This document shows, one piece after another, positions 39,889 to 56,477 of a stretch of 64,000 nucleotides of DNA. Numbering within the stretch: the stretch's first letter is position 1; the number at the start of each line of letters is the position of its first letter. The notes under the pieces were generated by a model, which was not told the origin of the DNA, searched no databases, and saw only the letters and a program-made list of their open reading frames with translations. Both the position numbers and the translations under genes were made by a program. Source of the DNA: a virus. Lineage: Duplodnaviria; Caudoviricetes. Where the stretch lies: IMG/VR virus record IMGVR_UViG_3300037067_021710; one strand, written 5' to 3'.

Positions 39889-40476
39889 TTATTTTAATAG
39901 ATTTTTTATAAAATTACCTTTATGGTCTTTTCCTTGTTTAACTTTAGCGGGCCAACTATGTAGAATATCTTTTAATAAAGCTCTTTGTTTTTCATACGCT
40001 TCATCTTCGTCTGGGCCCATCCAAAAAGATAAATACAATTGGTCTTCATCTATAACAATTTGTTCAACATATTTTTTTAAATTTGTTATGCGTTTAGGGA
40101 CATGTAATTCATTTTCAATTTTACCGTAATATTGTGCACCATGATCAATTATTTTATAATTATTGCTTAGAGTATCTCCATCCAAAATAAATAATACTCC
40201 CGAGTCTTGATAAACTTTATTATTTGGATGTCTGGAAAAGAATACTAAATCAGCTTCGTGCGGAGGAATTGGCTGAGTTGCAATAGTACTAAACGTACCT
40301 GGAGGGCTATCATTGTGAGCCATATATTCAAAATAAGCTAACTCTAATTCTTTTTGTTGCTCTTTATTAAGCCCTAAGGTATTTGTTTTACAAATATTAA
40401 AAAAACTATCAACAGTAGTATAATGGTAAATATTCCCAACTTGTTTAGCTTCTTTTAATGAAATATATCTTTTCAT
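39889..40476 (-). CDS. leader-bearing putative internal head protein; possible ADP-ribosyltransferase fold
   Basis: Leader MKRYISLKE; YHYT...FFSR...ENE. Confidence 0.65.
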   Translation of the reverse strand: MKRYISLKEAKQVGNIYHYTTVDSFFNICKTNTLGLNKEQQKELELAYFEYMAHNDSPPGTFSTIATQPIPPHEADLVFFSRHPNNKVYQDSGVLFILDGDTLSNNYKIIDHGAQYYGKIENELHVPKRITNLKKYVEQIVIDEDQLYLSFWMGPDEDEAYEKQRALLKDILHSWPAKVKQGKDHKGNFIKNLLK

Positions 40477-40478
40477 AA

Positions 40479-40487
40479 TTATTAGTA
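40479..40487 (-). promoter_or_regulatory. putative late promoter TACTAATAA
   Basis: 2 nt upstream of ATG 40476. Confidence 0.55.
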
Positions 40488-40495
40488 ACTTTAGC

Positions 40496-40531
40496 AAAAA
40501 AAAAAGCTACTGTGTTTTAAACAGTAGCTTT
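40496..40531 (-). terminator. rho-independent terminator after protease-scaffold gene
   Basis: AAAGCTACTGT/ACAGTAGCTTT stem with 10-nt T tract on minus strand. Confidence 0.8.
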
Positions 40532-40561
40532 AAATATATTTACAATTTTAAGGAGTCTTTG

Positions 40562-42040
40562 TTATTTACGGCCTTGTAACCAAGCGGGTTTTTCGGATTT
40601 TTTAGATTCAGAGAATTTTTTAATCTTCATACCATCTTGTGTCTTTACTTTACTTTTACTTTCAAATCTCATTAACTTCGCAACAGCTTCTTTAAGAGTT
40701 TTTGACTCAAGCAGATATTTTTTAATATCTTTTATTGCAGGGTTCTTTTTCATTTCCCGAGCAACAAAAGCATTAACATATGTTTTTTCTGCTAAAGGCT
40801 GTTTCTTAGAAGGACGAGGGTCTGAATTTCTTATAATTCTCTTTTCGCCATGATTGTAAGAAAACTGATAACGGCGTACTGATTCAGCTTTACGACCAGG
40901 TTCAGCAATCATTTCTTCATCATTTACTACTTCATCATCTTCATTAAGAGTTTCAGAATCCGCTACAACTGCATCAGGGTCTTCATTTACTTGGTCAAAG
41001 TCTTCTTCGATAATTTCTTCATCAGGATTGATAGCGTCGATATCTTCATCTTCATCAAGCCCATTAGGAACTTTATCTTCTATTTGACCATCATCAGTAA
41101 TTGTTTGCCCATTTTCATCTTCGTCTTCAGTTATTTCATCGGGTAGTTCATCAGTCATTTCATCATCTTCAGTAATAGGCTCTTCATCACCATCACCATC
41201 AATACCCATAACTTCTTCGTCTTCTTCCGCAATTTTTTCGTCTGAGTCCATATTACCGAGTTCTTCTTCAATCACTTCTTCTTCAGGAGTCATAGCATCA
41301 ATATCTTCGTCTTCAGCAAGTGAATTAGACCCAGAAGCTATAGTAGCTGCCGCTTTATTTTCTTTAGGATAGTCTTGGCGTTTTTCTTCTGAAGAATCCA
41401 TTTCTTCTTCAAATTTAAAACCACGTTTAATAAGCATCTGTTCATAAATCTTAATTCGTTTCTCTGCTTTAGCAAGAGACTCTTTGAATTTTTTAGATTT
41501 TTCTTTAAGATAATTAATATCAGAATCACGTTTGAGAGTGTCTTCCATAAGGTCAGTCATCTCACTTAATTTAGTGATTTCTAATTTTTTTGCAAGCTTA
41601 TGTTCAAAAAGCTTTTCAACTGCAGTAATGTCTTTTAACATCTCAGTTTCATTTTCTTTAAGACTAGAAACTTCTTCAGACATCTTCTTAACGTTTTCTT
41701 TAAGTTCGTCTACATTAACAGATTCATCAAGACCCACTTTTTCGATAATAGCTTTCGCTTTAGAATATTTTTCGTTAAGAGTTTTAAGTGCATTTTCATT
41801 TTCAATAACTTTAGCAGAAAGTTCTACAACTTTTCCCTCTGCAGTTTTCTTTTGTTCTTCAAGTTTTCCTTGAAGTTCAACAACAGTGCTATCTACACGT
41901 TCAGAAAGATCTTTAAGTTCTACAGGAACTTCAATATCTCTTAAAGTTTCAATAGCTTCTTTTAGATTTTCATTTTTACGTGCCATACGAATAGCTTCTT
42001 TAATACTATTTCGTAGTGTAGATTCTTGAAATTTTTCCAT
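40562..42040 (-). CDS. putative nested in-frame scaffold-only product (492 aa, MEKFQE...)
   Basis: Internal ATG 42040 with GAGGG SD and intragenic TACTAATAA at 42117-42125. Confidence 0.55.
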   Translation of the reverse strand: MEKFQESTLRNSIKEAIRMARKNENLKEAIETLRDIEVPVELKDLSERVDSTVVELQGKLEEQKKTAEGKVVELSAKVIENENALKTLNEKYSKAKAIIEKVGLDESVNVDELKENVKKMSEEVSSLKENETEMLKDITAVEKLFEHKLAKKLEITKLSEMTDLMEDTLKRDSDINYLKEKSKKFKESLAKAEKRIKIYEQMLIKRGFKFEEEMDSSEEKRQDYPKENKAAATIASGSNSLAEDEDIDAMTPEEEVIEEELGNMDSDEKIAEEDEEVMGIDGDGDEEPITEDDEMTDELPDEITEDEDENGQTITDDGQIEDKVPNGLDEDEDIDAINPDEEIIEEDFDQVNEDPDAVVADSETLNEDDEVVNDEEMIAEPGRKAESVRRYQFSYNHGEKRIIRNSDPRPSKKQPLAEKTYVNAFVAREMKKNPAIKDIKKYLLESKTLKEAVAKLMRFESKSKVKTQDGMKIKKFSESKKSEKPAWLQGRK

Positions 42041-42766
42041 ATGTTTCTTACCCTCATTTTCGTTTATATTAGAATCTTCAATTGCTTCTTTCAAAGATTG
42101 AATATTTTTTTCTTTATTATTAGTAATAGTTGCTTCTTTTGTTTCACTTAATTCATCATTTTTTTTATCAGTTTCACTATTGGGAGCCTGTTCTAAATTT
42201 TCATACGTGGCAAACACTTGTTGGGAGGGATTAATTACCGCGTCTCCCCAACGTTGTAAATCGTACGAATCTGGGTCAACAGTTTTTTCATCTTGTAAAA
42301 ACTCACCAAATCCCACACGACTTACTCCAATGGACCCACCAGCTTCAATAGTTTCTTTTATTAAGTCTCCATTATCTCCAACTAAATACCAATCACCATA
42401 ACTACAATGTTCCCCTAATTTAGGATTATGCCATACTCCACAAATGTTAAGGATAGAGCCATCTTCATCATCACCTGGATGATCAGCTAATGAAAGTGTG
42501 CCTTCAGCTATTCCTTCTTTTATAATCTTTTCATCTAAAGCTCTAGGGTATATACGGCCATTGAGATTTTCTGTATATTTGCTAACAGGAACATTTCTAA
42601 TTATATGTCTTGCTTTATATTGTTTTCCATCAACAGATTCAGTGAGAACTTCTTTTAAAGTTTCAATTTGGTTTGGCAATATATTTAATTGGCAATTCTC
42701 AATAAGAAGAATTTTACCTTTTGATTTAGCTTTTTCTTCTAAGGCTTGTCTTCGCTTTATATTCAT
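40562..42766 (-). CDS. prohead protease fused to scaffold/core protein
   Basis: gp21-like NLNGRIYP, LADHP, IGVSRVGFG, DAVINPS; then coiled-coil and acidic region rich in (L/I/F/V)xE. Confidence 0.85.
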   Translation of the reverse strand: MNIKRRQALEEKAKSKGKILLIENCQLNILPNQIETLKEVLTESVDGKQYKARHIIRNVPVSKYTENLNGRIYPRALDEKIIKEGIAEGTLSLADHPGDDEDGSILNICGVWHNPKLGEHCSYGDWYLVGDNGDLIKETIEAGGSIGVSRVGFGEFLQDEKTVDPDSYDLQRWGDAVINPSQQVFATYENLEQAPNSETDKKNDELSETKEATITNNKEKNIQSLKEAIEDSNINENEGKKHMEKFQESTLRNSIKEAIRMARKNENLKEAIETLRDIEVPVELKDLSERVDSTVVELQGKLEEQKKTAEGKVVELSAKVIENENALKTLNEKYSKAKAIIEKVGLDESVNVDELKENVKKMSEEVSSLKENETEMLKDITAVEKLFEHKLAKKLEITKLSEMTDLMEDTLKRDSDINYLKEKSKKFKESLAKAEKRIKIYEQMLIKRGFKFEEEMDSSEEKRQDYPKENKAAATIASGSNSLAEDEDIDAMTPEEEVIEEELGNMDSDEKIAEEDEEVMGIDGDGDEEPITEDDEMTDELPDEITEDEDENGQTITDDGQIEDKVPNGLDEDEDIDAINPDEEIIEEDFDQVNEDPDAVVADSETLNEDDEVVNDEEMIAEPGRKAESVRRYQFSYNHGEKRIIRNSDPRPSKKQPLAEKTYVNAFVAREMKKNPAIKDIKKYLLESKTLKEAVAKLMRFESKSKVKTQDGMKIKKFSESKKSEKPAWLQGRK
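42117..42125 (-). promoter_or_regulatory. intragenic putative late promoter TACTAATAA
   Basis: In protease-scaffold linker, about 77 nt upstream of the internal ATG. Confidence 0.55.
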
Positions 42767-42791: not shown

Positions 42792-42800
42792 TTATTAGTA
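42792..42800 (-). promoter_or_regulatory. putative late promoter TACTAATAA
   Basis: Upstream of protease-scaffold ATG. Confidence 0.65.
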
Positions 42801-42822: not shown

Positions 42823-42853
42823 AAAAAAGCTTAGGTTTTAATACCTAAGCTTT
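42823..42853 (-). terminator. rho-independent terminator ending the leader-gene array
   Basis: AAAGCTTAGGT/ACCTAAGCTTT stem plus T tract. Confidence 0.8.
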
Positions 42854-42878: not shown

Positions 42879-43175
42879 TTATTGATATACTATACCAGAA
42901 TCATCTAAAATAGAAATGTCTTTAGAATCTAATTTCTGTTTATGTAGTAATTTACCCCGGATTCTTATAAGTTGGCGTATATTATAAGCTTCATCTTCTA
43001 AGTGTTTATTATCTTTAACATATTGATCAATAGCCCCAATTATATTTATGCCTTCTTTTAAATGAACACTATAAGGTGATTTCCATTTCTTATGACCTTG
43101 ATTATACCCATCAAGATGATTTTCTGCAAATTTGAATTTGTATTCTTTTGATTGATTTTTCATAGTACCTTTCAT
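42879..43175 (-). CDS. putative internal head protein (variant leader)
   Basis: ...KEYKFKFAE. Confidence 0.55.
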   Translation of the reverse strand: MKGTMKNQSKEYKFKFAENHLDGYNQGHKKWKSPYSVHLKEGINIIGAIDQYVKDNKHLEDEAYNIRQLIRIRGKLLHKQKLDSKDISILDDSGIVYQ

Positions 43176-43190: not shown

Positions 43191-43457
43191 TTACGCTTGT
43201 CTAATAAAGTCAATTTCAATTTTATTGCTAACTTGTTCTACATTTCCACAAGCGAATCCACCGCCAAATTTAGCTCTTATTTCGTCTGTAATTTTGTCTA
43301 CTGTTTTAGAGTCAGTGCCATCTCCAGTACCTAAAGCAGTCTTAATATCTCCGAAGTCTTGAGGATAAGCAATTGTTATACTATTTTTACTGTGTGATAA
43401 TATTCTTCCTTTCGAAAGAATACTACTTTCTTTTAACTGTGACTTATATCGTTTCAT
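43191..43457 (-). CDS. leader-bearing putative internal head protein
   Basis: MKRYKSQLKE. Confidence 0.7.
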   Translation of the reverse strand: MKRYKSQLKESSILSKGRILSHSKNSITIAYPQDFGDIKTALGTGDGTDSKTVDKITDEIRAKFGGGFACGNVEQVSNKIEIDFIRQA

Positions 43458-43639
43458 TTTTTCTTTCCCCCAAATAATAATTTACCAGCTCCAAATAGAT
43501 ATCCTATTTGTTTTAATCTCTTAATATCAACAGCCATACTTTTTAGTACTGAGATAATAGTGTCTTCTTTATTTTCAAACGTCTCTTTATCAAGTGCTGA
43601 AAAGTCTGCTTTTTCTGTGTATTTGCTTTTGTATTTCAT
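43454..43639 (-). CDS. leader-bearing putative internal head protein
   Basis: MKYKSKYTE. Confidence 0.65.
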   Translation of the reverse strand: MKYKSKYTEKADFSALDKETFENKEDTIISVLKSMAVDIKRLKQIGYLFGAGKLLFGGKKK

Positions 43640-43645: not shown

Positions 43646-43858
43646 TTATTGTGTAATTTCAATTTTTTGTTTTTGTAAAGCTTCTAATGCATTTTGATAA
43701 TCATTTTTATTATTAAAAACAATTCTATTTGAATAGTCTTGTTTAAAAGGAATTCTTATATCATGCAATATATCCAAAGTTTTTTGTACATTGCCTCTAT
43801 ATAAAGAAACTTCTATAATAAACTTTGCTTCTTTTAAAATTGATTTATATCTTTTCAT
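43646..43858 (-). CDS. leader-bearing putative internal head protein
   Basis: MKRYKSILKE. Confidence 0.7.
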   Translation of the reverse strand: MKRYKSILKEAKFIIEVSLYRGNVQKTLDILHDIRIPFKQDYSNRIVFNNKNDYQNALEALQKQKIEITQ

Positions 43859-43889: not shown

Positions 43890-44261
43890 TTAATCATAAA
43901 CGGGCCCTCTATAATTATCAGCTTTTAATGTGCTAATTGAAATATAGATATAGGGCGTATTTTTATTATCACTTAAATTATCTTCATTCATATGAACCTG
44001 AATTTTATCTTTTAAATTTTCATATGATGTAACATCACTTTGTTTATATGAGTCATCATAAATATGAAAATCATTCTTTTCTAACCAATGTTCAATAGCT
44101 TTAAAAGCAGAATCTTTTGCCTTCACTCGGTAAAAATCTTTTCTGTCAGGTACTTTAAATGGCTTTAAACTATCTTTATCTAACCCAAAATTCTTAGCTA
44201 ACTCATTAGCTACTTTTTGTGGTGAAGTTGATTCTTTCAAAACTGATTTATATCTTTTCAT
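43890..44261 (-). CDS. leader-bearing putative internal head protein
   Basis: MKRYKSVLKE. Confidence 0.7.
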   Translation of the reverse strand: MKRYKSVLKESTSPQKVANELAKNFGLDKDSLKPFKVPDRKDFYRVKAKDSAFKAIEHWLEKNDFHIYDDSYKQSDVTSYENLKDKIQVHMNEDNLSDNKNTPYIYISISTLKADNYRGPVYD

Positions 44262-44537
44262 AGTTCTCTTTTATATTGCTTTAATATTGTTAAGACCATA
44301 TTCTATTGAGACTCCTTTAAGTTCTGGTAAGTTAAATTTTACATTTGCTTTATGAGCAATCCTATCAACAAAAGTAACAATACCTTTAGTACCTTTCTTA
44401 ATTTTAACATTTGTAAGAGTATTTTTTCTAAAAGGCTGTTCTATAATTTTATCTATTAAAGTTTTAACTTCTTTACCTTCAAGAGTATCGTTGTCCAAAG
44501 AGGTATTTTCTTTCAAAACTGATTTATATCTTTTCAT
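44232..44537. repeat. identical 30-nt direct repeat (44232-44261 and 44508-44537) encoding the leader MKRYKSVLKE
   Basis: ttctttcaaaactgatttatatcttttcat twice; identity ends exactly at the Glu codon. Confidence 0.9.
44271..44537 (-). CDS. leader-bearing putative internal head protein
   Basis: MKRYKSVLKE. Confidence 0.7.
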   Translation of the reverse strand: MKRYKSVLKENTSLDNDTLEGKEVKTLIDKIIEQPFRKNTLTNVKIKKGTKGIVTFVDRIAHKANVKFNLPELKGVSIEYGLNNIKAI

Positions 44538-44778
44538 CATCAATCACCCTCCGAGGTTCTTCTAATAATTCTTCACCAAGCTCTGTACAATAATTCCCTA
44601 ATCGCTTAAAGAATAATCGAGCTTCTTTAGAATTTATATGGAATAAATTTATAATAAGCTTAACGAATTTTCTTCGTTGAGCATCATTTCCAAAATTCTC
44701 ATCACGTAGCATACGGACTATTTCTGCTACTTCTGAATCTTCTAGTTGTTCATTGTATTTTGATTTGTATTGGGTCAT
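44524..44778 (-). CDS. leader-bearing putative internal head protein
   Basis: MTQYKSKYNE. Confidence 0.65.
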   Translation of the reverse strand: MTQYKSKYNEQLEDSEVAEIVRMLRDENFGNDAQRRKFVKLIINLFHINSKEARLFFKRLGNYCTELGEELLEEPRRVIDDEKI

Positions 44779-44952
44779 TTATTTTAAATAGTGCTTTTTA
44801 AAATATTCAACAAGATTTTTAAATACAAATTCTTCATCATCATTAGGAAAATAGTCTGCTATATTACTGTGTAAAAGCTCACAAACTGACTTAATATCAC
44901 CTATATTTAGCTGAGCAGATACTTCACTAAGTTTACTTTTGTACTTTTTCAT
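44779..44952 (-). CDS. leader-bearing putative internal head protein
   Basis: MKKYKSKLSE. Confidence 0.65.
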   Translation of the reverse strand: MKKYKSKLSEVSAQLNIGDIKSVCELLHSNIADYFPNDDEEFVFKNLVEYFKKHYLK

Positions 44953-44957: not shown

Positions 44958-45299
44958 TCACCTATTTGAATAAGCTTTATTTACTATTTTATTTAAAAAT
45001 CCTATATTTCTCCAGGACCCTAGATATTTGTTATTAATATTTTCGATGTCTCTACCATATTCTTTTGCTATCTGAGCTAAAATTATGCTATTAAGCTGTC
45101 CCTCAATGAAATCATCATCATAGTCTAGCTCAATTACTTTGTCAGGCAATTCTTCTTTAGTATGAGCATCAATATACTTTGATAACTTAGCAGAACCTTT
45201 TACATTTATTTGAATTTTAAAATTAAATTCTCCCAAGTCTTCAGATCCGTTGTAAGAAGCATTTTTTGTTTCTGTTAATCTACTTTTGTACTTTTCCAT
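44958..45299 (-). CDS. leader-bearing putative internal head protein
   Basis: MEKYKSRLTE. Confidence 0.7.
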   Translation of the reverse strand: MEKYKSRLTETKNASYNGSEDLGEFNFKIQINVKGSAKLSKYIDAHTKEELPDKVIELDYDDDFIEGQLNSIILAQIAKEYGRDIENINNKYLGSWRNIGFLNKIVNKAYSNR

Positions 45300-45662
45300 T
45301 TATATTACCTCTTGTTGTATTATTGCTTTACCACTTACAGTAAAAGCTGTTTTTGCATCATTATACATTATATTAGTAAGACCATACTTGGCCAATGTTT
45401 CATTCACTATTTGAAAGGCTTCATCAGTTGGGTATACAATCGTTTCACCAGAATAAATTGCATCTTTCACAAATTTATCATCTTTGACTGAATACTTAAA
45501 TGTAAACGTAAACTTTACATTGTCTTTATCAGAAGTGCTATCCTTCTCTGGTACAATAAATAGTACTGAGGTTTTGAATGCTTTGTTGAAGTCATTCATT
45601 ATTTCAGTAAGAATTGAATGAGACTCTGGAACAGCTTCTGAAAATCTTGATTTATATTTCAT
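45300..45662 (-). CDS. leader-bearing putative internal head protein
   Basis: MKYKSRFSE. Confidence 0.7.
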   Translation of the reverse strand: MKYKSRFSEAVPESHSILTEIMNDFNKAFKTSVLFIVPEKDSTSDKDNVKFTFTFKYSVKDDKFVKDAIYSGETIVYPTDEAFQIVNETLAKYGLTNIMYNDAKTAFTVSGKAIIQQEVI

Positions 45663-45669
45663 AATTCCT

Positions 45670-45855
45670 TTATTTATAAGTCTTCATTTTATCTAAAATT
45701 TCAACAAATTTATCTCTTGCATATCCTGGGGTTACAACAAACACATGAGCAATTTTTTTAATGTCTGGCATAAGGGATTTGGCTAAATCTTCAAGTTCAC
45801 TTTCTAATGTTGCATCTTTAGTTGCTTCTGAAAATCTTGATTTATACTTCATCAT
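45670..45855 (-). CDS. leader-bearing putative internal head protein
   Basis: MKYKSRFSE. Confidence 0.65.
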   Translation of the reverse strand: MMKYKSRFSEATKDATLESELEDLAKSLMPDIKKIAHVFVVTPGYARDKFVEILDKMKTYK

Positions 45856-46076
45856 TTTTCCTCTATAATTTTCTTTAAATCATTAATACATTTAGTAATA
45901 ATAGCTTGATATTTACTACCATCATCTTCGTCTATAAGCCCTTGAATAGTTTTTTGTCTTCCTAAAGTTACCCATACTTGCCATAACCCTGACCCCTGAT
46001 CTTTATTGCCAAAAGACACTTCAAAATTTATTAAATGAAGACTATTTTCTGTCAATTTACTTTTGTATTTTTCCAT
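45852..46076 (-). CDS. leader-bearing putative internal head protein
   Basis: MEKYKSKLTE. Confidence 0.7.
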   Translation of the reverse strand: MEKYKSKLTENSLHLINFEVSFGNKDQGSGLWQVWVTLGRQKTIQGLIDEDDGSKYQAIITKCINDLKKIIEEK

Positions 46077-46077
46077 A

Positions 46078-46431
46078 TTATAACGCTCCAGCCATTTTTT
46101 GAAGATCTTTTAATGATACATTGATATAATTTGTTTCGGAATTGTCTCCATTTAATTTAATTCGTGGATAAAATTCTCCCGCCTTATTTTCTTTTATAAA
46201 ATCTAGTATTGCTTTTTTTAAATATTTTGTATCTGAAGAATCACTAAATTCAGTTAATTTACTTTTATACTTTTCCATTTTAAACTCCTCTGATAATTTA
46301 TCGTAATCTACATTGTTAGTCCAATCACTATCAAAAACCCATTTGTCTTTTTCTGAAGCTTTATCTTTAGAGCCATGCTTAGAACGCAGAGACTGTATCA
46401 TTTTAAATTGAGATTTTGATTTTGCTGGCAT
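46078..46431 (-). CDS. MPAKSK-type peptide fused in frame to a leader-bearing protein (internal start 46278)
   Basis: Internal MEKYKSKLTE at residue 52 with GAGGAG SD. Confidence 0.65.
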   Translation of the reverse strand: MPAKSKSQFKMIQSLRSKHGSKDKASEKDKWVFDSDWTNNVDYDKLSEEFKMEKYKSKLTEFSDSSDTKYLKKAILDFIKENKAGEFYPRIKLNGDNSETNYINVSLKDLQKMAGAL

Positions 46432-46437: not shown

Positions 46438-46746
46438 CTACATTTCTGGAGTGATATATACAGTCCCAGAGTCATACCATTCTAATTCAAATTTGTATTT
46501 TTTAAGTAAAGATGCAAACTCTTTTAAAACACCAAATTCATCGTATAGTGCAGGATATTCATCATAGCCGTATGCGTCAAAAATGTTTATATCATCTTTA
46601 TTTAAAGACACATCTCCACCAAGTATAACTTTAGTATCATTGACTGTAGCTAATTTAAAATGTCCTTTTGGGTATTTTGACTTTAACACAGATAAAAAAG
46701 ACTCGAACGATGTTGATTCTAGCAATTGTGGTTTATAACGTTTCAT
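46438..46746 (-). CDS. leader-bearing putative internal head protein
   Basis: MKRYKPQLLE. Confidence 0.7.
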   Translation of the reverse strand: MKRYKPQLLESTSFESFLSVLKSKYPKGHFKLATVNDTKVILGGDVSLNKDDINIFDAYGYDEYPALYDEFGVLKEFASLLKKYKFELEWYDSGTVYITPEM

Positions 46747-46766
46747 TTTACCCTCAAATAGTTTAA

Positions 46767-46775
46767 TTATTAGTA
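46767..46775 (-). promoter_or_regulatory. putative late promoter TACTAATAA
   Basis: Intergenic, within the leader array. Confidence 0.6.
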
Positions 46776-46781
46776 CAAATT

Positions 46782-47063
46782 CTATTCTTTTTCACTCTCT
46801 TGTTCATCTTGAATTTTAGCAATTTCAAGTTCTTTTTGCTTAACTACAATGTCTTGTTGAGCTTTACGCTGCTGGTCTTTTAATGAACGTATTGTGTCAG
46901 GATCAGTATCTTCTTTGTCATTTTCTCTTTTTATTTTATACTGAAGGTCTTTTAATTTTTGTTGCAAATCTTGAATAGCCAACTTAGTAGTTTCAGATTT
47001 GTCTGGCTTATCTGAACTAGTTGTGTCTTCAGCTTCGTTTAATATTGGTTTATATCGTATCAT
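46782..47063 (-). CDS. leader-bearing coiled-coil protein
   Basis: MIRYKPILNE. Confidence 0.7.
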   Translation of the reverse strand: MIRYKPILNEAEDTTSSDKPDKSETTKLAIQDLQQKLKDLQYKIKRENDKEDTDPDTIRSLKDQQRKAQQDIVVKQKELEIAKIQDEQESEKE

Positions 47064-47074
47064 TATTTTACCTT

Positions 47075-47284: not shown

Positions 47285-47288
47285 TTAT

Positions 47289-49409: not shown

Positions 49410-49638
49410 TTATTTTATTTTTTAAATTTTGTATAATACTTTCTATTGAAGGTATTTGCTTTATAGAATAATACAATAATGATTCATCCTTTAACTGCGG
49501 AGTATTTGGATTTTTAAAATCTAATGGCCAAAAATAAAAGTACCCTTTACCTTTTATTAATTCATACCCTAAAGGAAGTAGGGCTTTATTTATTTTAATA
49601 AGAGTTATACTTTCAATTAATGAATTATAGCGTCGCAT
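49396..49638 (-). CDS. leader-bearing putative internal head protein
   Basis: MRRYNSLIE; LIKGKGYFYF. Confidence 0.65.
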   Translation of the reverse strand: MRRYNSLIESITLIKINKALLPLGYELIKGKGYFYFWPLDFKNPNTPQLKDESLLYYSIKQIPSIESIIQNLKNKINETI

Positions 49639-49720: not shown

Positions 49721-49873
49721 TTATTTATTAGTAATACGACTTTGCTTCTTAACTTGACGCGCAGCTTCCATGATTTTGTTCATAGTAGCTCTTCCAGCTC
49801 GATTAAGCTTACGAAGCTCTCTAACTGCATGCTCAAGCTCCTGCGCCTTTTTTAGTACAATCGCTTTTGCCAT
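49721..49873 (-). CDS. small basic helical protein (50 aa), not in ORF track
   Basis: MAKAIVLKKAQELEHAVRELRKLNRAGRATMNKIMEAARQVKKQSRITNK; AGGAGG SD. Confidence 0.7.
   Translation of the reverse strand: MAKAIVLKKAQELEHAVRELRKLNRAGRATMNKIMEAARQVKKQSRITNK
49725..49733 (-). promoter_or_regulatory. putative late promoter TACTAATAA
   Basis: Overlaps final codons (TNK) of the 50-aa ORF. Confidence 0.45.
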
Positions 49874-49902
49874 GTCTATACCTCCTATAGTATAAAGTGC
49901 AT

Positions 49903-50115
49903 TTAGGTAGTCTTCTCCACTTCACCATTTATATGTAGAATGTAGTTACCATCAAGATCTTTTAATAGAACCTTTTGTATATTTTGAGGCTTCATAACAT
50001 GCTCAACGATTTCAGAAATACATCCAACAGGGCCTTGACCATTACAACGATATTCACGTTGATCCATTGGCCAATCCTTTTTACCATAAGAAACTCGTTT
50101 AAATATTATAGCCAT
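49903..50115 (-). CDS. hypothetical protein
   Basis: AGGAG SD; no leader. Confidence 0.65.
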   Translation of the reverse strand: MAIIFKRVSYGKKDWPMDQREYRCNGQGPVGCISEIVEHVMKPQNIQKVLLKDLDGNYILHINGEVEKTT

Positions 50116-50210: not shown

Positions 50211-50858
50211 TTATGCTTTTTTAGGTTCTGGAACCTTATCTATATAGGCCTGAGCTTCTTTTTCAGTCTCAAATTCTCGCCATTTAGAGTCTTTATTATT
50301 TGGTTTTGCATAATAGATTGTATCATCAAACATATCTTTTCCTTTTATTAGGCCAAACTCTTTTCCTTTTAATTCATCTACTTCTTCAGGTTTTCGAACT
50401 ACATTCATATCAGCTGATCCTTTGCCTTTGCTTGGTTTTTCTGCGCCAGAAGAATAGTCTTTTGCATCGTCTTCATCATCAAATTTTAACCATTTTTTGT
50501 GACCACCATCTTTTGGATCAGGTCTTCCAAACCATTCACCAGTTTCTTCATTTTGAAACATTCCAAACCCTTTACCATATTTAACTATAGAAGCTTTGTC
50601 CTCTTCTTCAACTTCATCACTTGAATAGGCCCAAGGATCTCTTCCTTTGCCTTTCTTTTTTGGTTTTTCATCTTCATCTTCTGCTTCTTCACCAGTCATA
50701 GTATGCCCATTTTTAGCATAATAAATAGCTTCCTCAGAAGTATCAAAATAGTCTATTTTATCTCCAGACTTACCAGCATACATGCCTTTACCTAAGCTCC
50801 AGTGTTCACCGTTGTCTCTCCGTTCTCCGCCCTCTTTAATTGAAATATATCTTTTCAT
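50211..50858 (-). CDS. leader-bearing protein with three internal repeats
   Basis: MKRYISIKE; GK..G...F(D/E)T..(E/D)A..Y three times. Confidence 0.7.
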   Translation of the reverse strand: MKRYISIKEGGERRDNGEHWSLGKGMYAGKSGDKIDYFDTSEEAIYYAKNGHTMTGEEAEDEDEKPKKKGKGRDPWAYSSDEVEEEDKASIVKYGKGFGMFQNEETGEWFGRPDPKDGGHKKWLKFDDEDDAKDYSSGAEKPSKGKGSADMNVVRKPEEVDELKGKEFGLIKGKDMFDDTIYYAKPNNKDSKWREFETEKEAQAYIDKVPEPKKA

Positions 50859-50865: not shown

Positions 50866-51228
50866 CTATCGATATAATGTCTGAACTTTAATTGTCTTTG
50901 GTAAAAAAACATTCACAATACTATTATATAATTTCTGTATAGTCTCAATACTTTTCACTTGAGCTTCTGGAATATAAATATCTACTTGCACAAGTAATTT
51001 GTTAGGCCATGTTCTTAAATTTACAAAAAAAGTATTACAAATATTTATTAATAAAAAACCTTCTTCACCAAAAATAGTTACAATTGGCTTTAGCATTTTA
51101 AAACAAATATCGTCATTAACTAAAGATGAAAAATATAATTCAGCAAATTCTTTATTTTTCAAACATTCGAGATCACATTGGCAATCTTTAAGATCAGCAA
51201 TAAAATGAATGCTTTCTAAAGTTTTCAT
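50866..51228 (-). CDS. S-adenosylmethionine decarboxylase (SpeD)-like protein lacking the ESH site
   Basis: H.IADL..C start and RTWP...VQVDIY, but no ESH. Confidence 0.6.
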   Translation of the reverse strand: MKTLESIHFIADLKDCQCDLECLKNKEFAELYFSSLVNDDICFKMLKPIVTIFGEEGFLLINICNTFFVNLRTWPNKLLVQVDIYIPEAQVKSIETIQKLYNSIVNVFLPKTIKVQTLYR

Positions 51229-51905
51229 AATTCTATTTTTATAGGTTCTTTCAAATACATATAAATATATTTATATAGTAACTTTAATATTTGAGGTTCA
51301 TCTTCAAATGTTTCTTGATAAAAAATTAAAAACCCAGAACCATATTTATTTAAAGAATTATTTTGAAGCCCTTTTAATATCATTTCATTCGTATAGCCAT
51401 TAAAACGTAGTTCTTCAATTATCATATTTGCAAAAGCCATAAGCTCATGTTTGTTTCTATAATATTTTAAATCTTCAGGAATTAAACTTACGTTTTTGTT
51501 TAAATGAACTCGTTCAACATTTTGTAAGTATTGGCCTCTATGGACTAATTCATGAGCAAATACTAACCCGCAAGTGTTTAAAAATCTAGCAAAAAATTTT
51601 CTATCTTTAAAATATTTATTAAAATCTTCAGTAACAAAAATAATTATACTATGCTCAATAGATTTTCCACGTACAATACCATTTCGGCCTTCTTCATTAA
51701 CTATTTTAAAAAGTATATTATATGAAGAAAACACAGAGTTTAATTTTTTAATAATTTCATCTGATGATTTATTAATCAAAGGGTAGTCAAATACAGAAAA
51801 TAAAGCTTCTTCTAAAACTTCTTGGTATTTTTCAGTGTGTATAACTGCTTCATTAAGATTAGAAAAATAATGTAAAGCTTCAAAAATTCTTCTATATTTT
51901 CTCAC
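51225..51905 (-). CDS. leader-bearing zincin (HExxH) protein
   Basis: MRKYRRIFE..LNE; HELVHRGQ...HELMAFA; LKLLYKYIYMYL. Confidence 0.7.
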   Translation of the reverse strand: MRKYRRIFEALHYFSNLNEAVIHTEKYQEVLEEALFSVFDYPLINKSSDEIIKKLNSVFSSYNILFKIVNEEGRNGIVRGKSIEHSIIIFVTEDFNKYFKDRKFFARFLNTCGLVFAHELVHRGQYLQNVERVHLNKNVSLIPEDLKYYRNKHELMAFANMIIEELRFNGYTNEMILKGLQNNSLNKYGSGFLIFYQETFEDEPQILKLLYKYIYMYLKEPIKIEL

Positions 51906-51914: not shown

Positions 51915-52616
51915 CTATAAATTAATATAAACTTTCCACAATTGAGTGTACAAAAACTTTTCTATTTCACCAGGACTTGGGTCTTTATGTGGAGCAATTA
52001 GTATTCCCGCTAGTCTACAGGCAGCATCGACTTCTTCACTACAATAATAAGTATATTTATCATCTCCACTTTTTGATAACCACCCAAGTAATCCAGTGAA
52101 ATCATAAGCTTTTCCAATAATGTTAGTTAGAAATTTTAAAATAAGCTTATTTTGAAATTCATTTGCTGGTATTTTACGGAGAGTCATCTTACGAAGTTGG
52201 TAATGAGAAAAATTAAAACATGTCATCCCTATAGCATCAGCGCTTGAGACAACTAAAGTTTTCATATCACCAGTAAATACTATATTCTTACCATAGCACT
52301 CATAAAGACTTTTTTCTATTTTGAGCCAATCAAGTTCAGAAAACCATTTCTTTAAATCTTCAGAGTATAGAAAAATAACACAATGAGAATATCCACTACT
52401 AAAATATCCAATGATTTTAGAAAGGATATCTTTTGAATCAGCTTTTAAACAACAAAGGTAAAGTCCTTCACCATGTTTTTTAAGAAGATCTTCAAATGGG
52501 GTTAAAAGAGGTATATAGGATTTTGGCTTATGATTCTTTTTATAAGATTCAGATATTTTTTTATTTAACCACGTTAACAACATTATTAACCTCTTCTTTA
52601 AAATATATTTTACCAC
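51915..52616 (-). CDS. permuted papain-like amidase (YaeF/YiiX-like)
   Basis: SGYSHC (His) precedes GKAYDF and YYCSE (Cys), PSP; real start possibly 52583. Confidence 0.7.
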   Translation of the reverse strand: MVKYILKKRLIMLLTWLNKKISESYKKNHKPKSYIPLLTPFEDLLKKHGEGLYLCCLKADSKDILSKIIGYFSSGYSHCVIFLYSEDLKKWFSELDWLKIEKSLYECYGKNIVFTGDMKTLVVSSADAIGMTCFNFSHYQLRKMTLRKIPANEFQNKLILKFLTNIIGKAYDFTGLLGWLSKSGDDKYTYYCSEEVDAACRLAGILIAPHKDPSPGEIEKFLYTQLWKVYINL

Positions 52617-52695
52617 ATAATTGACAAATACAACTTAATTCAGAATCTTGATATTGGTATGTAAAACATTTACAATATGGGCATTCTTTGACCAT
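52561..52695 (-). CDS. 44-aa Zn-ribbon protein, not in ORF track
   Basis: MVKECPYC...CQLCGKIY. Confidence 0.45.
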   Translation of the reverse strand: MVKECPYCKCFTYQYQDSELSCICQLCGKIYFKEEVNNVVNVVK

Positions 52696-52700: not shown

Positions 52701-53081
52701 TTATTTTAGTTCGTCAAATATACCACAACTTTTTCCAAATGAGTAATAGTCTTCTCTTTCGCTTAAATGGTCCATACTGATTCGCTTTGCAAGTATTGAA
52801 CAAGTAGTATGTTCTTTTTCGACTTCAAGACCCATTTCAATTTCTTTAGGATCAAAATCAGACTCTTTCTTACCACTTTTAACAAACTTACCAGTTCCTA
52901 AAAAGTCACCAAGAAAAGCATAAATTTCAGTTTCAAGTTCACTAGGCTCCATACCTTTTTCTTGAGCTAAAGCATGAATCATATCGTCAGTAGGGTGTGG
53001 AGTTTTTACAAAAAAATCTACAAGCTCTTTTCGAAGAGTTTGAGTATCTGACTGTTCTGAGAATTTGCTTTTGTAGTTCAT
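52701..53081 (-). CDS. leader-bearing protein with DUF5661-like C-terminus
   Basis: MNYKSKFSE; MGLEVEKEHT...AKRISMDHL.E..DYY. Confidence 0.65.
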   Translation of the reverse strand: MNYKSKFSEQSDTQTLRKELVDFFVKTPHPTDDMIHALAQEKGMEPSELETEIYAFLGDFLGTGKFVKSGKKESDFDPKEIEMGLEVEKEHTTCSILAKRISMDHLSEREDYYSFGKSCGIFDELK

Positions 53082-53082: not shown

Positions 53083-53367
53083 TTATTTTTTATAATCTAT
53101 TGTTCCAAGAGATTTATAAGAATGTGAATTCCAATCAATAATTGAAACTTTATAAAAATCTCCAAAATCATAAACCTCAAAGTCTCCACCACTCAACTCA
53201 CTTTTTGGAAATTTCTTATGCGCATTTTTATCTGTTTGTAATTTATCATAAATTAAATTGTAAATATTTCTACCTTTAGAATCCTTTTGATCTACAGTTA
53301 TTATTTTGTCTGTAAATTTTGGTAATGTACTGAGACCGCCTTCTTTTAATGATTTGTATCGTTTCAT
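53083..53367 (-). CDS. leader-bearing putative internal head protein
   Basis: MKRYKSLKE with GAGG SD. Confidence 0.7.
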   Translation of the reverse strand: MKRYKSLKEGGLSTLPKFTDKIITVDQKDSKGRNIYNLIYDKLQTDKNAHKKFPKSELSGGDFEVYDFGDFYKVSIIDWNSHSYKSLGTIDYKK

Positions 53368-53369: not shown

Positions 53370-53639
53370 TTACCTCGTGTAAGTTGCCCATCCTTGCGAA
53401 TGAGATAATTCTTTTATAATAAACTGAAATACTTTTATATTGTTATCACTACCACATTTTTCAACAATTTTTTGACCATCAAGTTGAAGAAGTTCTACAA
53501 GACCAATACCATCACGAGCATCAACTAAGTCATCAATTTCTTGTTCAAGATTTCCAGCTTTACGACCTAGCCATCGGTATGCTTGCTTTTTAAAATCTTC
53601 GATTTTGTCTGACTCTTTAAGTGAATTATATCTTTTCAT
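53370..53639 (-). CDS. leader-bearing putative internal head protein
   Basis: MKRYNSLKE. Confidence 0.7.
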   Translation of the reverse strand: MKRYNSLKESDKIEDFKKQAYRWLGRKAGNLEQEIDDLVDARDGIGLVELLQLDGQKIVEKCGSDNNIKVFQFIIKELSHSQGWATYTR

Positions 53640-53654: not shown

Positions 53655-54020
53655 TTATAAATGGCCAAACATATTTTGTTTAAATTCTTTTAATCGAATT
53701 TTTAAATATTTCATTACATCACCATAATTATGAAAATCTTTATCTGTCATTCCCTCATTTACATAAACAATAAATTCATAACTATCTTCTTCGGGTACAA
53801 TCAAAATTTCTATTGCAAAATCAGCATAATGGCCTTGTTTAGAAGTTCTAATAGTTGTATAAATAGTATCATGATCAGTCAACTCTATTATCTTCTTTTG
53901 AGCGGGTTGATATTTGAAATAGACTAATTTACCAAACTTAGAAATATCTAGTTTAAATTGTTTAACTATCGATACAATTTTATTATCTTCTTTTTCTTGT
54001 AATGTAAGGTATCTATTCAT
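53655..54020 (-). CDS. leader-bearing putative internal head protein
   Basis: MNRYLTLQE. Confidence 0.65.
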   Translation of the reverse strand: MNRYLTLQEKEDNKIVSIVKQFKLDISKFGKLVYFKYQPAQKKIIELTDHDTIYTTIRTSKQGHYADFAIEILIVPEEDSYEFIVYVNEGMTDKDFHNYGDVMKYLKIRLKEFKQNMFGHL

Positions 54021-54450
54021 AAGCTTTCTTTATTTCTTCTCCCCAATTATAATCAAGTAACGGTTTGATATCTATAGCGGGCATTGATTTTTTTCCTAAT
54101 TCATAATAAGCTTGTACTCTATGCCCCCCGTCTAAGAACTTAATTCCTGATACTATAATGGGATCGAACTCTGTACCTGATTGAATCATCTTTTTATACT
54201 TGTCTATAACTTTTTTAGATATAGTCCTGTTCTTAAATTGTTTGAACATTGCTTCAGGGCTTACCTTTTTTATTTTAAGCTCTGGTAGGTCTGGAGTATC
54301 TTTAACGAAATCAATGATATCACTATCATTCCAAAATTTGGAAGTGTCTTTAAATCCTGAGTACTTCAACTTTAATTCTTCTACGATGTCTTCTTGAACA
54401 TCTGATTGTAGGTCATCAAAAGATTCTGTTAATGAATAATAACGTTTCAT
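54013..54450 (-). CDS. leader-bearing ParB/Srx-like domain protein
   Basis: MKRYYSLTE; DPIIV...LDGGHRVQAY..LG. Confidence 0.7.
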   Translation of the reverse strand: MKRYYSLTESFDDLQSDVQEDIVEELKLKYSGFKDTSKFWNDSDIIDFVKDTPDLPELKIKKVSPEAMFKQFKNRTISKKVIDKYKKMIQSGTEFDPIIVSGIKFLDGGHRVQAYYELGKKSMPAIDIKPLLDYNWGEEIKKAYE

Positions 54451-54452: not shown

Positions 54453-54812
54453 TTATTCACCATAAATAGTTTTATAATATTCATCAACAAAAGAAGCTCT
54501 TACAGGGACTCCATTGCCAATAGACTTCATCATACGAGCAAGACCAGCAACAAAAGTTTTTTCATCAGCAGATTGTGCTTTATACCCAAGAGCAAATGCT
54601 TTGTGTTGTATAAGTTTAAATCGTTTGGTTATATTGGGCTCAGAGAGAATTTCTTTAACCCCAGTGCTATGAGGATCTATTTCAAATCTGCGATCACCTT
54701 TGGGCCCTTTCATTGTGTCTACTCGTAAAGGATTGTTTATAGACCCTGCAGTAGAACCCGAAGTATTTATTTTAAGGTCTAAGGGCTCTTGTATTGATTT
54801 ATATCGTTTCAT
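54453..54812 (-). CDS. leader-bearing putative internal head protein
   Basis: MKRYKSIQE. Confidence 0.7.
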   Translation of the reverse strand: MKRYKSIQEPLDLKINTSGSTAGSINNPLRVDTMKGPKGDRRFEIDPHSTGVKEILSEPNITKRFKLIQHKAFALGYKAQSADEKTFVAGLARMMKSIGNGVPVRASFVDEYYKTIYGE

Positions 54813-54827
54813 TTTAATTTTTACCTA

Positions 54828-55088
54828 TTATATATAACTTTTTAAAGTATCTGTAAGATCATCAATTATATAAAGTGTAATAAGTCTTGCTGGAATATTG
54901 TAATTTTTTGTTATAAAACTTGATAATTCAGAATATGATTTTAATAAATCATGAGCATATAAACTATATACTTTAGACTCTGGGTATTTTCCATATTTCA
55001 TTCTTATTATTTTAGCAGTTTTGTCTAAAAGTTTTAAATATTGTTTTTCATCTAATGCTTCTTTTAATATTGTTTTATATCGTTTCAT
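54828..55088 (-). CDS. leader-bearing protein, paralog of 55674..55928
   Basis: MKRYKTILKE; DEK.YL..LDK..KII. Confidence 0.7.
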   Translation of the reverse strand: MKRYKTILKEALDEKQYLKLLDKTAKIIRMKYGKYPESKVYSLYAHDLLKSYSELSSFITKNYNIPARLITLYIIDDLTDTLKSYI

Positions 55089-55109
55089 TTATTTACTCAT
55101 AATTAAAAT

Positions 55110-55367
55110 CTATAAATGTAAGTCTTTGTTTAACTCTATCATACTATTGATATATTCATCTATTTCTGAAATTTTAAATACATAGTTTTCTCTTGGAACT
55201 TCTCCTAAATAGATTGCATAAGCTATATCATTAAGACCGCCATAATTATTTTTTCCAAATAATTTACGAGCATAGTTTTTACTTGCTTGAATATCATTAA
55301 TTATCTTATTTAATTTTAAATAGCTCCATGGGTGAAAAGATTCTTGTATTGATTTATATCGTTTCAT
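55110..55367 (-). CDS. leader-bearing putative internal head protein
   Basis: MKRYKSIQE. Confidence 0.7.
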   Translation of the reverse strand: MKRYKSIQESFHPWSYLKLNKIINDIQASKNYARKLFGKNNYGGLNDIAYAIYLGEVPRENYVFKISEIDEYINSMIELNKDLHL

Positions 55368-55369
55368 AT

Positions 55370-55660
55370 TTAATCTTCTCCAAAAGTTTTGTCCAATAAT
55401 TTTAAGGTTTTTGTATATGCTAAGTTATTCGGTAAACTTAATTCTGCATTCATATCTTTATAATTAGACTTTGTATTAAGCTTACCATGAGGTATATTAT
55501 TTTTTGTCAAGAGTTTTTCTACTATTTTAGCATCATCTAAAAGTTCAAAGCTCATTATAAAGAATTGCTTAGTTTTTCCATTTGAGTCAACCCCGTTAAC
55601 AGGGTCAATATTATAATAGCCAATCTTAGCTTCTTTTAATAATGATTTATATCTTTTCAT
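55370..55660 (-). CDS. leader-bearing putative internal head protein
   Basis: MKRYKSLLKE. Confidence 0.7.
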   Translation of the reverse strand: MKRYKSLLKEAKIGYYNIDPVNGVDSNGKTKQFFIMSFELLDDAKIVEKLLTKNNIPHGKLNTKSNYKDMNAELSLPNNLAYTKTLKLLDKTFGED

Positions 55661-55673
55661 TATTTTTCTTCTC

Positions 55674-55928
55674 TTATTTAATATTATTGTGCTCTATTAT
55701 ATCTTCTATAAAATGACCTGCAACAAGCCTACTAGGACTGTCATATCTATCTCTAACATACTTAAATAAGTCATGAGAGCTAAACATTAAAGTAGATGCT
55801 ATATTTTCAATGTCTTTAGAAGAAGGGTGATTTGCAAATCTTTGATGAATAATTTTTCCAGCTTTGTCAAGAATTTCTAGATATTTCTTTTCGTCAAAAG
55901 ACTCTTTTAATGATTTATATCTTTTCAT
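55674..55928 (-). CDS. leader-bearing protein, paralog of 54828..55088
   Basis: MKRYKSLKE. Confidence 0.7.
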   Translation of the reverse strand: MKRYKSLKESFDEKKYLEILDKAGKIIHQRFANHPSSKDIENIASTLMFSSHDLFKYVRDRYDSPSRLVAGHFIEDIIEHNNIK

Positions 55929-56095
55929 AAAGAAGCACCCAGCACTTTAATAATTTTATCTAATTTTTTTCGTTCTGAAGTAGTTGCAGCTCCCATTGCT
56001 TTCTGATCAACAAAGTTTATTAAAAATTCTAAGTCATCATAACCAATAGTAACAGACACAGAGGACTCAGTTAACTTACTTTTGTATTTTTGCAT
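55925..56095 (-). CDS. leader-bearing putative internal head protein (first gene of array)
   Basis: MQKYKSKLTE; start trimmed from 56134. Confidence 0.65.
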   Translation of the reverse strand: MQKYKSKLTESSVSVTIGYDDLEFLINFVDQKAMGAATTSERKKLDKIIKVLGASL

Positions 56096-56144
56096 AATTA
56101 TACCTATGTTAATATATAATACAAATTTGAACACTATTTTGTAT

Positions 56145-56477
56145 TTATTTATTAGTAAAAGAAAGGAATTTTTTAATTATTGGGAGTAATTCGTCAGACA
56201 AGACTTTTGATAAAATACAAGAACCACCTTCTTCACTATAAAGTACATGAGAACCATCAGGTTGCTTTATTAAGTCTCGTTCTGAGCGGATAGGGTAGTA
56301 ATTATCTTCAGTCATAATATATACATCTTCTCCTAAGACTAATTCACCATTTGGAAGTCCTAAAGAAGTTAAATTGTATACATGCTCATCTGGATGTATT
56401 TCTAATTGTTCAATTGGTAGGTCATTAAAGAGGGTATCGGGAAAATCATTCATATTTTTATATTTCCACTTGCCCAT
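56145..56477 (-). CDS. hypothetical protein
   Basis: 110-aa ORF. Confidence 0.6.
   Translation of the reverse strand: MGKWKYKNMNDFPDTLFNDLPIEQLEIHPDEHVYNLTSLGLPNGELVLGEDVYIMTEDNYYPIRSERDLIKQPDGSHVLYSEEGGSCILSKVLSDELLPIIKKFLSFTNK
56149..56157 (-). promoter_or_regulatory. putative late promoter TACTAATAA heading the leader array
   Basis: Overlaps TNK codons at the end of the upstream gene. Confidence 0.55.

Follow-up and report, generated by a model that had tools for sequence, protein, structure and literature searches.

An array of largely unrelated small genes sharing a T4-like N-terminal leader beside the head genes of an uncultured phage: a candidate capsid targeting and clipping system

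Why should dozens of neighboring phage genes, encoding small proteins that otherwise have nothing in common, all begin with the same short peptide? The question is raised by an array of minus-strand genes that adjoins the head genes of an uncultured T4-like phage. The array lies in a 64,000-nucleotide stretch of DNA (the window), which is the reverse strand of positions 25776-89775 in the 89,842-base virus record IMGVR_UViG_3300037067_021710. An initial annotation of the window had read the shared leader as cleavable and had proposed, by analogy with the internal proteins of phage T4, that it directs the proteins into the head. Our analysis leads to a related answer. With a probability of roughly 0.7, we consider the leader to be a T4-type capsid targeting and clipping signal that, together with a gp21-fold protease fused to the scaffold, is applied to about 40 rapidly exchanged proteins. 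The 89,842-base record is estimated by CheckV to be 41% complete, and identical copies of proteins from the window are encoded on a 165,394-base contig. A Logan assembly contig obtained independently, though possibly from the same sample, is 100% identical across 19,988 bases, and its gene calls agree with ours.

Leader-bearing genes were identified from an open reading frame (ORF) listing of the window together with a six-frame pattern scan of the 89.8-kb record. This revealed 33 minus-strand genes between 39889 and 56095 whose products start with a shared leader of 9-10 residues (longer in two of them). The figure of 35 genes in the initial annotation was reproduced when the N-extended gene at 42879-43175 and the stop-interrupted gene at 47064-47284 were added to these 33. 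The leader is of the type MKRYKSxLxE. It is rich in Lys and Arg and is laid out as Met1, one or two basic residues, Tyr, and Lys-Ser or a similar pair, with a hydrophobic-x-Glu end 5-6 residues past the Tyr. In the 36 standard leaders on which statistics were measured, the Tyr is found at position 4 (32 leaders) or position 3 (4 leaders). Counting back from the predicted cut, P1 is Glu in 36/36 and P3 is hydrophobic in 35/36 (26 Leu, 4 Ile, 3 Phe, and 2 Tyr), and P1' is Ser or Ala in most. The chance level was estimated from 100 second-order Markov simulations. A strict leader pattern gave 33 matches against a simulated mean of 0.04 (maximum, 1), and a loose pattern gave 41 against a mean of 5.7 (maximum, 14). 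The leader pattern is confined to two clusters of the record, a few weak matches aside. Leader genes are not restricted to 39889-56157, as a second cluster of at least seven leader genes is found on the plus strand at about 64804-67954, just past the end of the window. In total, the record carries at least 41 leader genes among approximately 174 ORFs of at least 50 residues.

Past the Glu, the products are unrelated apart from two pairs of paralogues, as the initial annotation had stated. The only relationships returned by an all-against-all BLASTP comparison of the mature parts of 38 proteins (E values up to 20) join 48238-48975 to 51225-51905 and 54828-55088 to 55674-55928; no hidden paralogy beyond these pairs was found at this low stringency. 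We also noted two small minus-strand ORFs outside the array (34428-34721 and 35872-36072) with leader-like starts of 11 and 8 residues, respectively, each with Tyr4 and an Ile-Lys-Glu end. They are possible outlying members.

A capsid targeting and clipping signal of the T4 type would be expected to act alongside a prohead protease and a scaffold, and a gene predicted to encode both lies at 40562-42766 on the minus strand. As the initial annotation had noted, the array flanks this gene, with one leader gene (39889-40476) placed between it and the capsid gene. The product is 734 residues long: residues 1 to approximately 190 form the prohead protease, which has a gp21-fold model, and the remainder, a coiled-coil followed by a strongly acidic region, corresponds to the scaffold. 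No match to the protein was obtained in Pfam or PHROG, and phmmer and profile searches of the protease against the PDB reached only E values of 1.2 and 0.44 (to 5JBL). Since the sequence-only searches gave nothing significant, comparisons of folds and of profiles were needed. A model of the protease domain was built from an alignment (predicted local distance difference test score [pLDDT], 81) and compared with the PDB using Foldseek. The sole significant match was T4 gp21 (5JBL; E = 4e-8; probability, 1.00), and the next match had an E value of 0.1. When the domain was compared with gp21 of the T4 record using hhalign (E = 1.5e-5), the His of an Asp-His-Pro motif and the Ser of a Gly-Val-Ser motif aligned with the T4 catalytic motifs. 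A tblastn search of cultured phages matched 66 records at 27-32% identity, and all 20 of the matches listed fall on genes annotated as gp21-type prohead protease/scaffold. At 50%-identity clustering, the relatives of the N-terminal 200 residues number 465; among the 150 listed, most are part of proteins of 500-900 residues. Taken together, the modeled fold and these alignments indicate that the phage encodes a prohead protease of the gp21 family (herpesvirus-protease fold) and therefore joins in one gene what T4 splits into gp21 and gp22, the products of separate genes 21 and 22. The protease-scaffold gene also contains an internal copy of the motif TACTAATAA (42117-42125), followed by GAGGG and an in-frame ATG at 42040 (42040-42125, minus strand). 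This arrangement suggests a nested scaffold-only product that would start at this ATG, like lambda C/Nu3.

T4 gp22 is degraded by gp21 at sites of the (L/I)xE type, the same triplet that ends most of the leaders. The protease-scaffold protein contains 39 (L/I)xE triplets compared with 16.3 expected from its own composition (z = 6.6). Control patterns (other spacings, reversed order, or Asp or Lys in place of Glu) were not comparably enriched, the largest excess being that of Glu-x-(Leu/Ile) (26 compared with 16.5; z = 2.8). The corresponding excess in T4 gp22 is 16 compared with 5.6 (z = 5.0), and an excess also is present in the protease-scaffold homologues of three relatives (z = 2.3-5.0). 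The major capsid protein provides a second potential substrate. Its gene (38227-39699, minus strand) encodes a gp23-like protein of 490 residues (Pfam Gp23, E = 3.3e-9; PHROG major head protein). The N-terminal region of approximately 74 residues is less conserved, and its last residues, Leu72-x-Glu74, immediately precede a highly conserved stretch. L72 and E74 are invariant in 3 relatives, and the Leu-x-Glu is retained in relatives whose protease domain is just 37-56% identical. The excess of (L/I)xE in the scaffold and the LxE of the capsid protein fit the specificity of a T4-like protease, although cleavage at these sites is a prediction from sequence.

The arrangement of putative regulatory elements ties the array to the head genes. 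The window contains 12 copies of the motif TACTAATAA, each of them on the minus strand, compared with 3 expected, in line with the initial observation that the array and the head genes share the motif. It is found at the head of the array (56149-56157), before the array gene 46438-46746 (46767-46775), upstream of the protease-scaffold gene (42792-42800), 2 nucleotides before the ATG of 39889-40476 (40479-40487), upstream of the capsid gene (39826-39834), and just upstream of a 678-residue ORF adjoining a tail-protein match (62195-62203); further copies precede large same-strand ORFs elsewhere. In most cases, approximately 20-25 nucleotides that include a Shine-Dalgarno sequence separate the motif from the ATG. 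Minus-strand terminator-like hairpins close the long leader array (42826-42853) and follow the protease-scaffold gene (40503-40531) and the capsid gene (38162-38193). No enrichment of sigma-70-type promoters was found in the array. Because TACTAATAA motifs stand at the heads and terminator-like hairpins at the ends, the array reads as a late unit; judging from these motifs, it looks like a unit of 13 kb, and TACTAATAA appears to be a late-promoter-like motif. Just past the window end, a palindromic divergent pair of TACTAATAA copies at 64715/64732 (about 64715-64740), between the second leader cluster and the gene block with the tail-protein match, looks like a divergent late promoter.

These observations are consistent with the following scheme, in which the shared N-terminal peptide would be a T4-type capsid targeting sequence that doubles as a propeptide. 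The leader genes would be transcribed late, together with the head genes, from TACTAATAA-type promoters. During prohead formation, the Met-Lys-Arg-Tyr head of the leader would dock each protein on the scaffolding core, which would be formed by the C-terminal part of the protease-scaffold fusion. The gp21-fold protease then would cut after the Glu of hydrophobic-x-Glu, and the same enzyme would use the many (L/I)xE sites of the scaffold to degrade it and would also remove the capsid propeptide. The freed mature proteins would stay in the head with the DNA and probably would enter the host with it. Being short and usable on unrelated proteins, such an address would allow a rapid gain, loss, and exchange of cargo genes behind a retained leader. 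On this scheme, of which docking, cleavage, head retention, injection, and effector function are all predicted from analysis, the phage probably packs a very large and fast-changing set of proteins with its DNA. The T4 analogy of the initial annotation thus stands with respect to the length and key positions of the leader, the gp21-fold protease, the (L/I)xE excess of the scaffold, and the late-unit layout. The proposed role in DNA compaction is not favored: the mature proteins have net charges from -12 to +9, and because these center on zero, DNA condensation is not indicated.

Several points weigh against a T4-type targeting system. Unlike the slightly acidic T4 sequence, the leader is basic, and the Pfam Peptidase_S77 model fails to detect the protease when run on the genome. 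The capsid N terminus compares weakly with that of T4 gp23 (probability, 6.9%), and this leaves the cut site unfixed. No cultured relative was found, as a tblastn search of cultured phages with the capsid protein gave no match at 1e-5. Five genes of the array have no leader. In the mature cargo, (L/I)xE is not depleted (53 compared with 50 expected), so that selection against internal cutting is not apparent. A promoter role for TACTAATAA is inferred, and the copy at 40479-40487 is too near the ATG to serve 39889-40476. Finally, some 40 protein species per head would imply a low copy number for each.

Comparison with relatives showed which parts of the array are conserved. Three IMG/VR fragments with capsid proteins 72, 72, and 52% identical over whole-protein alignments have the same layout, in which a leader array immediately precedes the protease-scaffold gene. 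The fragments are 30-35 kb long and 19-21% complete according to CheckV; the genomes of these relatives are therefore approximately 160 kb or more. Leader genes also adjoin the head genes in relatives whose protease domains are 37-74% identical. The leader consensus of distant relatives is lineage specific, with, for example, Phe at P3, and always ends in Glu. In one distant contig, the portal gene is directly upstream of the protease gene, and a single leader-like gene is nearby. The relative L036 (Ga0598242_0000014) carries approximately 11 leader genes with a consensus of the Phe-Phe type upstream of its protease-scaffold gene (8004-13867). These include a protein that combines a leader, an ART-PolyVal domain, and a conserved C-terminal domain, as well as one protein with DUF5661 and one with DUF6582. 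When IMG/VR and a metagenome set were scanned with capsid profiles, only the same three contigs were returned. An exact 30-nucleotide leader DNA pattern was not found in IMG/VR. An 18-nucleotide pattern was found in 18 stretches there; 13 have no leader-bearing ORF, three matches are on leader genes (of a known relative and one further contig), and the remaining few look like chance. As far as the sequences of these relatives allow it to be followed, the leader stays while the cargo turns over.

What, then, are the mature proteins? When the 38 array proteins were searched against Pfam, PHROG, and NCBIfam, the only matches were DUF5661, a leaderless gene resembling S-adenosylmethionine (AdoMet) decarboxylase, and two PHROGs. 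Structure prediction was more informative for the cargo encoded by 54013-54450. Its model has a pLDDT of 85, with residues 1-8 below 50, so that the leader is modeled as a disordered extension on a folded domain. Every top Foldseek match is a ParB-N or sulfiredoxin (Srx) structure (probability of about 1.0; E = 3e-3 to 0.1). There is also a weak PHROG match to ParB, and a DGGHR motif is invariant among homologues; a ParB/Srx fold is supported by this model. The proposal that this cargo corresponds to the N-terminal module of a fused homologue (P0158) did not reach significance, and we do not claim the link. A virus-only family with an HExxH motif has members at 48238-48975 and 51225-51905 and a third copy at 64804-65538. 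The HExxH and a later Glu are invariant, making the family a candidate zinc peptidase. Comparisons with metallopeptidases and with LPD23 gave weak structural leads (template modeling scores of 0.3-0.44), and a search of PDB sequences with the family profile found nothing. The Met-Lys-x-Tyr head and the conserved hydrophobic-x-Glu|Ala are adjacent in the short members of this family and up to approximately 25 residues apart in the long ones, a spacing that fits a two-part signal for targeting plus cleavage. The 209-residue product of 47609-48238 contains a domain that is conserved across the lineage and that elsewhere is the C-terminal module of leader-tagged proteins of 376-460 residues. These fused homologues carry ART-PolyVal (E = 5e-26) or DUF5661, with hydrophobic-x-Glu at the module junctions, and their homology to 47609-48238 starts exactly at the predicted mature N terminus. 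T4 Alt is an ADP-ribosyltransferase that is packaged in the head and injected. The fusion to ART-PolyVal is the best, although indirect, support for delivery.

The properties of the cargo also bear on the most viable of the alternatives, namely, that the leader is a prohead targeting and cleavage signal but that most of the proteins are core components or fillers which are degraded or expelled at maturation instead of being delivered. The T4 core proteins gp67 and gp68 provide a precedent, since they undergo processing and then mostly exit the head (PMC9026906); most of gp22 is lost likewise. Most of the cargos here are very small (46-120 residues) and belong to no recognizable family, and the lack of (L/I)xE depletion in their mature parts means that further cutting would be possible for many. 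Core components normally are conserved, however, yet just 7 of the 38 cargos have a homologue in the relatives with capsids 51-72% identical. Enzyme-like and DNA-binding folds (ParB/Srx and the invariant HExxH) are present among the cargos, and the fusion of a cargo domain to ADP-ribosyltransferases in relatives fits delivered effectors. We therefore regard loss of most of the proteins at maturation as unlikely.

The conserved start also could act at the level of nucleic acid, either as an A-rich translation booster in an AT-rich phage or as a homology block for cassette swapping, with no role for the peptide. The leader codons are indeed A-rich, and the cargo turns over rapidly. Adjacent genes often share a leader subtype while their mature parts are unrelated (43890-44537, 45300-45852, 45852-46278, and 46438-47612), and all 30 leader nucleotides are the same in the neighbors 43890-44261 and 44271-44537, which suggests local duplication of the leader or exchange of cassettes. 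Recombination at conserved elements beside internal-protein genes is documented in T-even phages (PMC2839356). On the other hand, leader codons differ synonymously between genes (Arg AGA/CGA/CGT, Tyr TAT/TAC, and Ser TCA/AGT/AGC) while the residues are kept, so that it is the peptide, not the DNA, that is conserved. Neither the invariant Glu at P1 nor the near-invariant hydrophobic residue at P3 is explained by translation efficiency. The motif also is found internally, at the domain junctions of fused homologues and in 46078-46431, and it matches both the excess in the scaffold and the conserved site in the capsid protein. A purely nucleic acid role is thus very unlikely, and recombination could well be an added benefit of the leader rather than an alternative to it. 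That the leader is a non-capsid signal (a degron or recognition tag for a host or phage protease or chaperone, or a sequence for targeting to the membrane or to another virion part such as the tail) is also very unlikely, for although the second cluster adjoins a gene block with a tail-protein match, no hydrophobic segment or lipobox is present in the leaders, which are therefore not secretion signals, in form they most closely match the capsid targeting sequence of T4, and the main array directly adjoins the protease-scaffold and capsid genes in several relatives.

The array can be followed gene by gene in the direction of transcription, with each leader gene, all on the minus strand, given as leader residues plus mature residues. 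The first is 55925-56095 (10 + 46), whose start agrees with an independent gene call. It is followed by the paralogues 55674-55928 (9 + 75) and 54828-55088 (10 + 76), between which lie 55370-55660 (10 + 86) and 55110-55367 (9 + 76), and then by 54453-54812 (9 + 110), the ParB/Srx-like 54013-54450 (9 + 136), 53655-54020 (9 + 112), 53370-53639 (9 + 80), and 53083-53367 (9 + 85). The gene at 52701-53081 (9 + 117) encodes a DUF5661 protein (Pfam E = 1.3e-6) with a local match to the fused homologue P0157. The five genes without a leader occur in this part of the array: a 44-residue Cys-rich ORF (52561-52695), a 233-residue gene matching phrog_1128 (51915-52616), the AdoMet decarboxylase-like gene (50866-51228; Pfam E = 3.6e-7), and two small ORFs (49721-50115). 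Interspersed with them are the HExxH gene 51225-51905 (9 + 217), which has a GTG start and is paralogous to 48238-48975, and 50211-50858 (9 + 206), whose product is acidic with a net charge of -12.

Farther along the array, 49396-49638 (9 + 71) precedes a leader variant, 48972-49409, that has the standard first four residues but whose first hydrophobic-x-Glu|Ala is at residues 20-22. The 245-residue product of 48238-48975, of the virus-only HExxH family, has a second conserved hydrophobic-x-Glu|Ala site, at residue 36. Next are 47609-48238 (14 + 195), in which the conserved domain follows the leader, and 47289-47612 (10 + 97). The gene at 47064-47284 is broken by an in-frame TAA at codon 12, after which 57 codons are open, and could be a (recent) pseudogene or a candidate for read-through. 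The genes 46782-47063 (10 + 83) and 46438-46746 (10 + 92), the latter with its own TACTAATAA, are followed by an ORF of 117 residues at 46078-46431, which consists of an N-terminal domain of approximately 50 residues and a tail of 56 residues, joined by an internal leader whose Met is at 46278. The initial annotation had labeled this ORF an internal start. The same layout of N-terminal domain plus internal leader recurs in the relatives L036 (9126-9563) and L037 (9374-9547), and for this reason the ORF may instead encode a genuine two-part protein that would be cut internally; the N-terminal domain stands alone as a 99-residue gene in L008 and L009.

The remaining genes toward the protease are 45852-46076 (10 + 64), 45670-45852 (9 + 51), 45300-45662 (9 + 111), 44958-45299 (10 + 103), 44779-44952 (10 + 47), 44524-44778 (10 + 74), 44271-44537 (10 + 78), 43890-44261 (10 + 113), 43646-43858 (10 + 60), 43454-43639 (9 + 52), and 43191-43457 (10 + 78). 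Of these, 44524-44778 has homologues in 4 related phages, and 45300-45662 has orthologues in relatives. In the orthologue group of the latter (four phages), the leader keeps its Tyr, Lys, Ser, and Glu while the free positions vary, and P3 is Phe in 4/5 and Ile in 1/5. The last gene before the protease, 42879-43175, encodes the N-extended variant of 98 residues, with Tyr-Lys-x-Lys-Phe-x-Glu at residues 12-18. In relatives, a 148-residue gene with a similar Tyr-Lys-Phe N terminus occupies the corresponding position just upstream of the protease gene, a likeness that concerns the N terminus alone. Beyond the protease-scaffold gene lies 39889-40476 (9 + 186). The genes for which no further feature is given here were recognized by the pattern scan.

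Downstream of the head genes, a 406-residue Cys/His-rich ORF (36952-38172, plus strand) is encoded on the opposite strand right after the capsid gene. Its position recalls that of the T4 homing-endonuclease gene segD, which adjoins gene 23. ORFs with Cys/His-rich N termini that look similar also lie near the capsid region of the relatives L002 (198-1208) and L014 (5913-7598; DUF7487).

If the tagged proteins are packaged, several consequences would follow. The leader would serve as a marker, readable from sequence alone, of proteins that reach the host at DNA entry; such proteins are hard to find and include known counter-defense factors such as T4 IPI*. One phage would yield about 40 candidates and the lineage thousands, and the T4 targeting principle would be seen to scale roughly tenfold. 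There also would be a tie to the polyvalent-protein idea, with separate tagged genes in one phage corresponding to fused modules with cut sites in another. A basic targeting tag and its cognate protease-scaffold could widen the T4-based tools for packaging proteins. A bolder proposal, to which we give somewhat less than even odds, is that a widespread uncultured T4-like lineage (the 465 protease-scaffold clusters) uses the head as a multi-effector injection device. In this proposal, about a quarter of the fragment's genes would be tagged by a portable two-part code (Met-Lys-Arg-Tyr plus hydrophobic-x-Glu, whether adjacent, spaced, or internal), and the cargo would be an unbundled, rapidly exchanged polyvalent arsenal comprising dozens of new injected anti-defense or takeover proteins per phage.

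T4 offers the closest comparison. In the T4 record (NC_000866), IPII and IPIII begin with a 10-residue peptide containing Met1, Lys2, Tyr4, Ile8, and Glu10; IPI has a 19-residue version, and gp24 has a 10-residue one ending in Leu-x-Glu. The first 10 residues of IPIII suffice for incorporation into the head, residues 4 and 7 being the main determinants of targeting and residues 8 and 10 those of processing, and the targeting sequence may be a general route for loading various proteins in T4-like phages (PMC9026906). The phage described here resembles T4 in the Met1, Lys2, Tyr4, hydrophobic residue 8, and Glu10 found on unrelated small proteins, in its gp21-fold protease and (L/I)xE-rich scaffold, and in its gp23-like capsid protein with a putative N-terminal propeptide region. 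The two differ in that the cargos here are not uniformly basic, whereas the T4 internal proteins are basic, and in that the tagged genes are grouped next to the head genes in long, late, operon-like arrays, while those for the T4 internal proteins (ip) map elsewhere in the genome. No match to the T4 IPI, IPII, IPIII, or Alt families was obtained among the 38 array proteins in Pfam, PHROG, or NCBIfam. The numbers also differ, with approximately 40 tagged genes in 89.8 kb compared with three internal proteins plus Alt in T4.

Two groups of proteins described in other phages share some of these features. The ejection and inner-body proteins of the giant phages phiKZ and SPN3US have individual propeptides and are not known to share one short leader; they are larger and are largely conserved within the group. 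Passages in PMC5694885 and PMC7411985 describe for these phages many head-internal proteins (approximately 50 head proteins in SPN3US) and a T4-like protease that cuts after Glu. Polyvalent proteins combine 2-15 domains per chain; their genes lie with late or virion genes, and packaging and injection are predicted for them (Iyer et al. 2017; PMC5512222), as a group that is compared here together with the head-packaged anti-restriction proteins Dar/Ddr of phage P1. The possible overlap with our cargo consists of ART-PolyVal (in the fused homologues of relatives only), the ParB-like and HExxH peptidase-like proteins, and a weak resemblance to LPD23. The difference is that the proteins here are mostly single small domains, each with one gene and one leader, whereas multimodule forms, with hydrophobic-x-Glu at the junctions, are found in the relatives.

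The polymorphic internal-protein loci of T-even phages come nearest in principle. T-even internal proteins are highly diverse defense proteins that share just the conserved targeting sequence (PMC3012670), and more than 30 variants are known overall, as cited in PMC2839356. According to Repoila 1994 and Comeau 2007, in the form in which PMC2839356 and PMC3012670 report them, these loci are like ours in their variable cargo, conserved targeting sequence, hyperplastic locus, and arms-race reading. In those reports, many phages, each with few variants per genome, together account for the more than 30, whereas here a comparable number is found in one genome of a distant uncultured lineage. Our literature search turned up no report of a single genome with tens of tagged genes. 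That one conserved targeting sequence can precede a diverse cargo was known beforehand from T4 and the T-even phages (PMC9026906, PMC3012670, and PMC2839356). What is new here is not the principle but the number of tagged genes in one genome and the lineage in which they occur.

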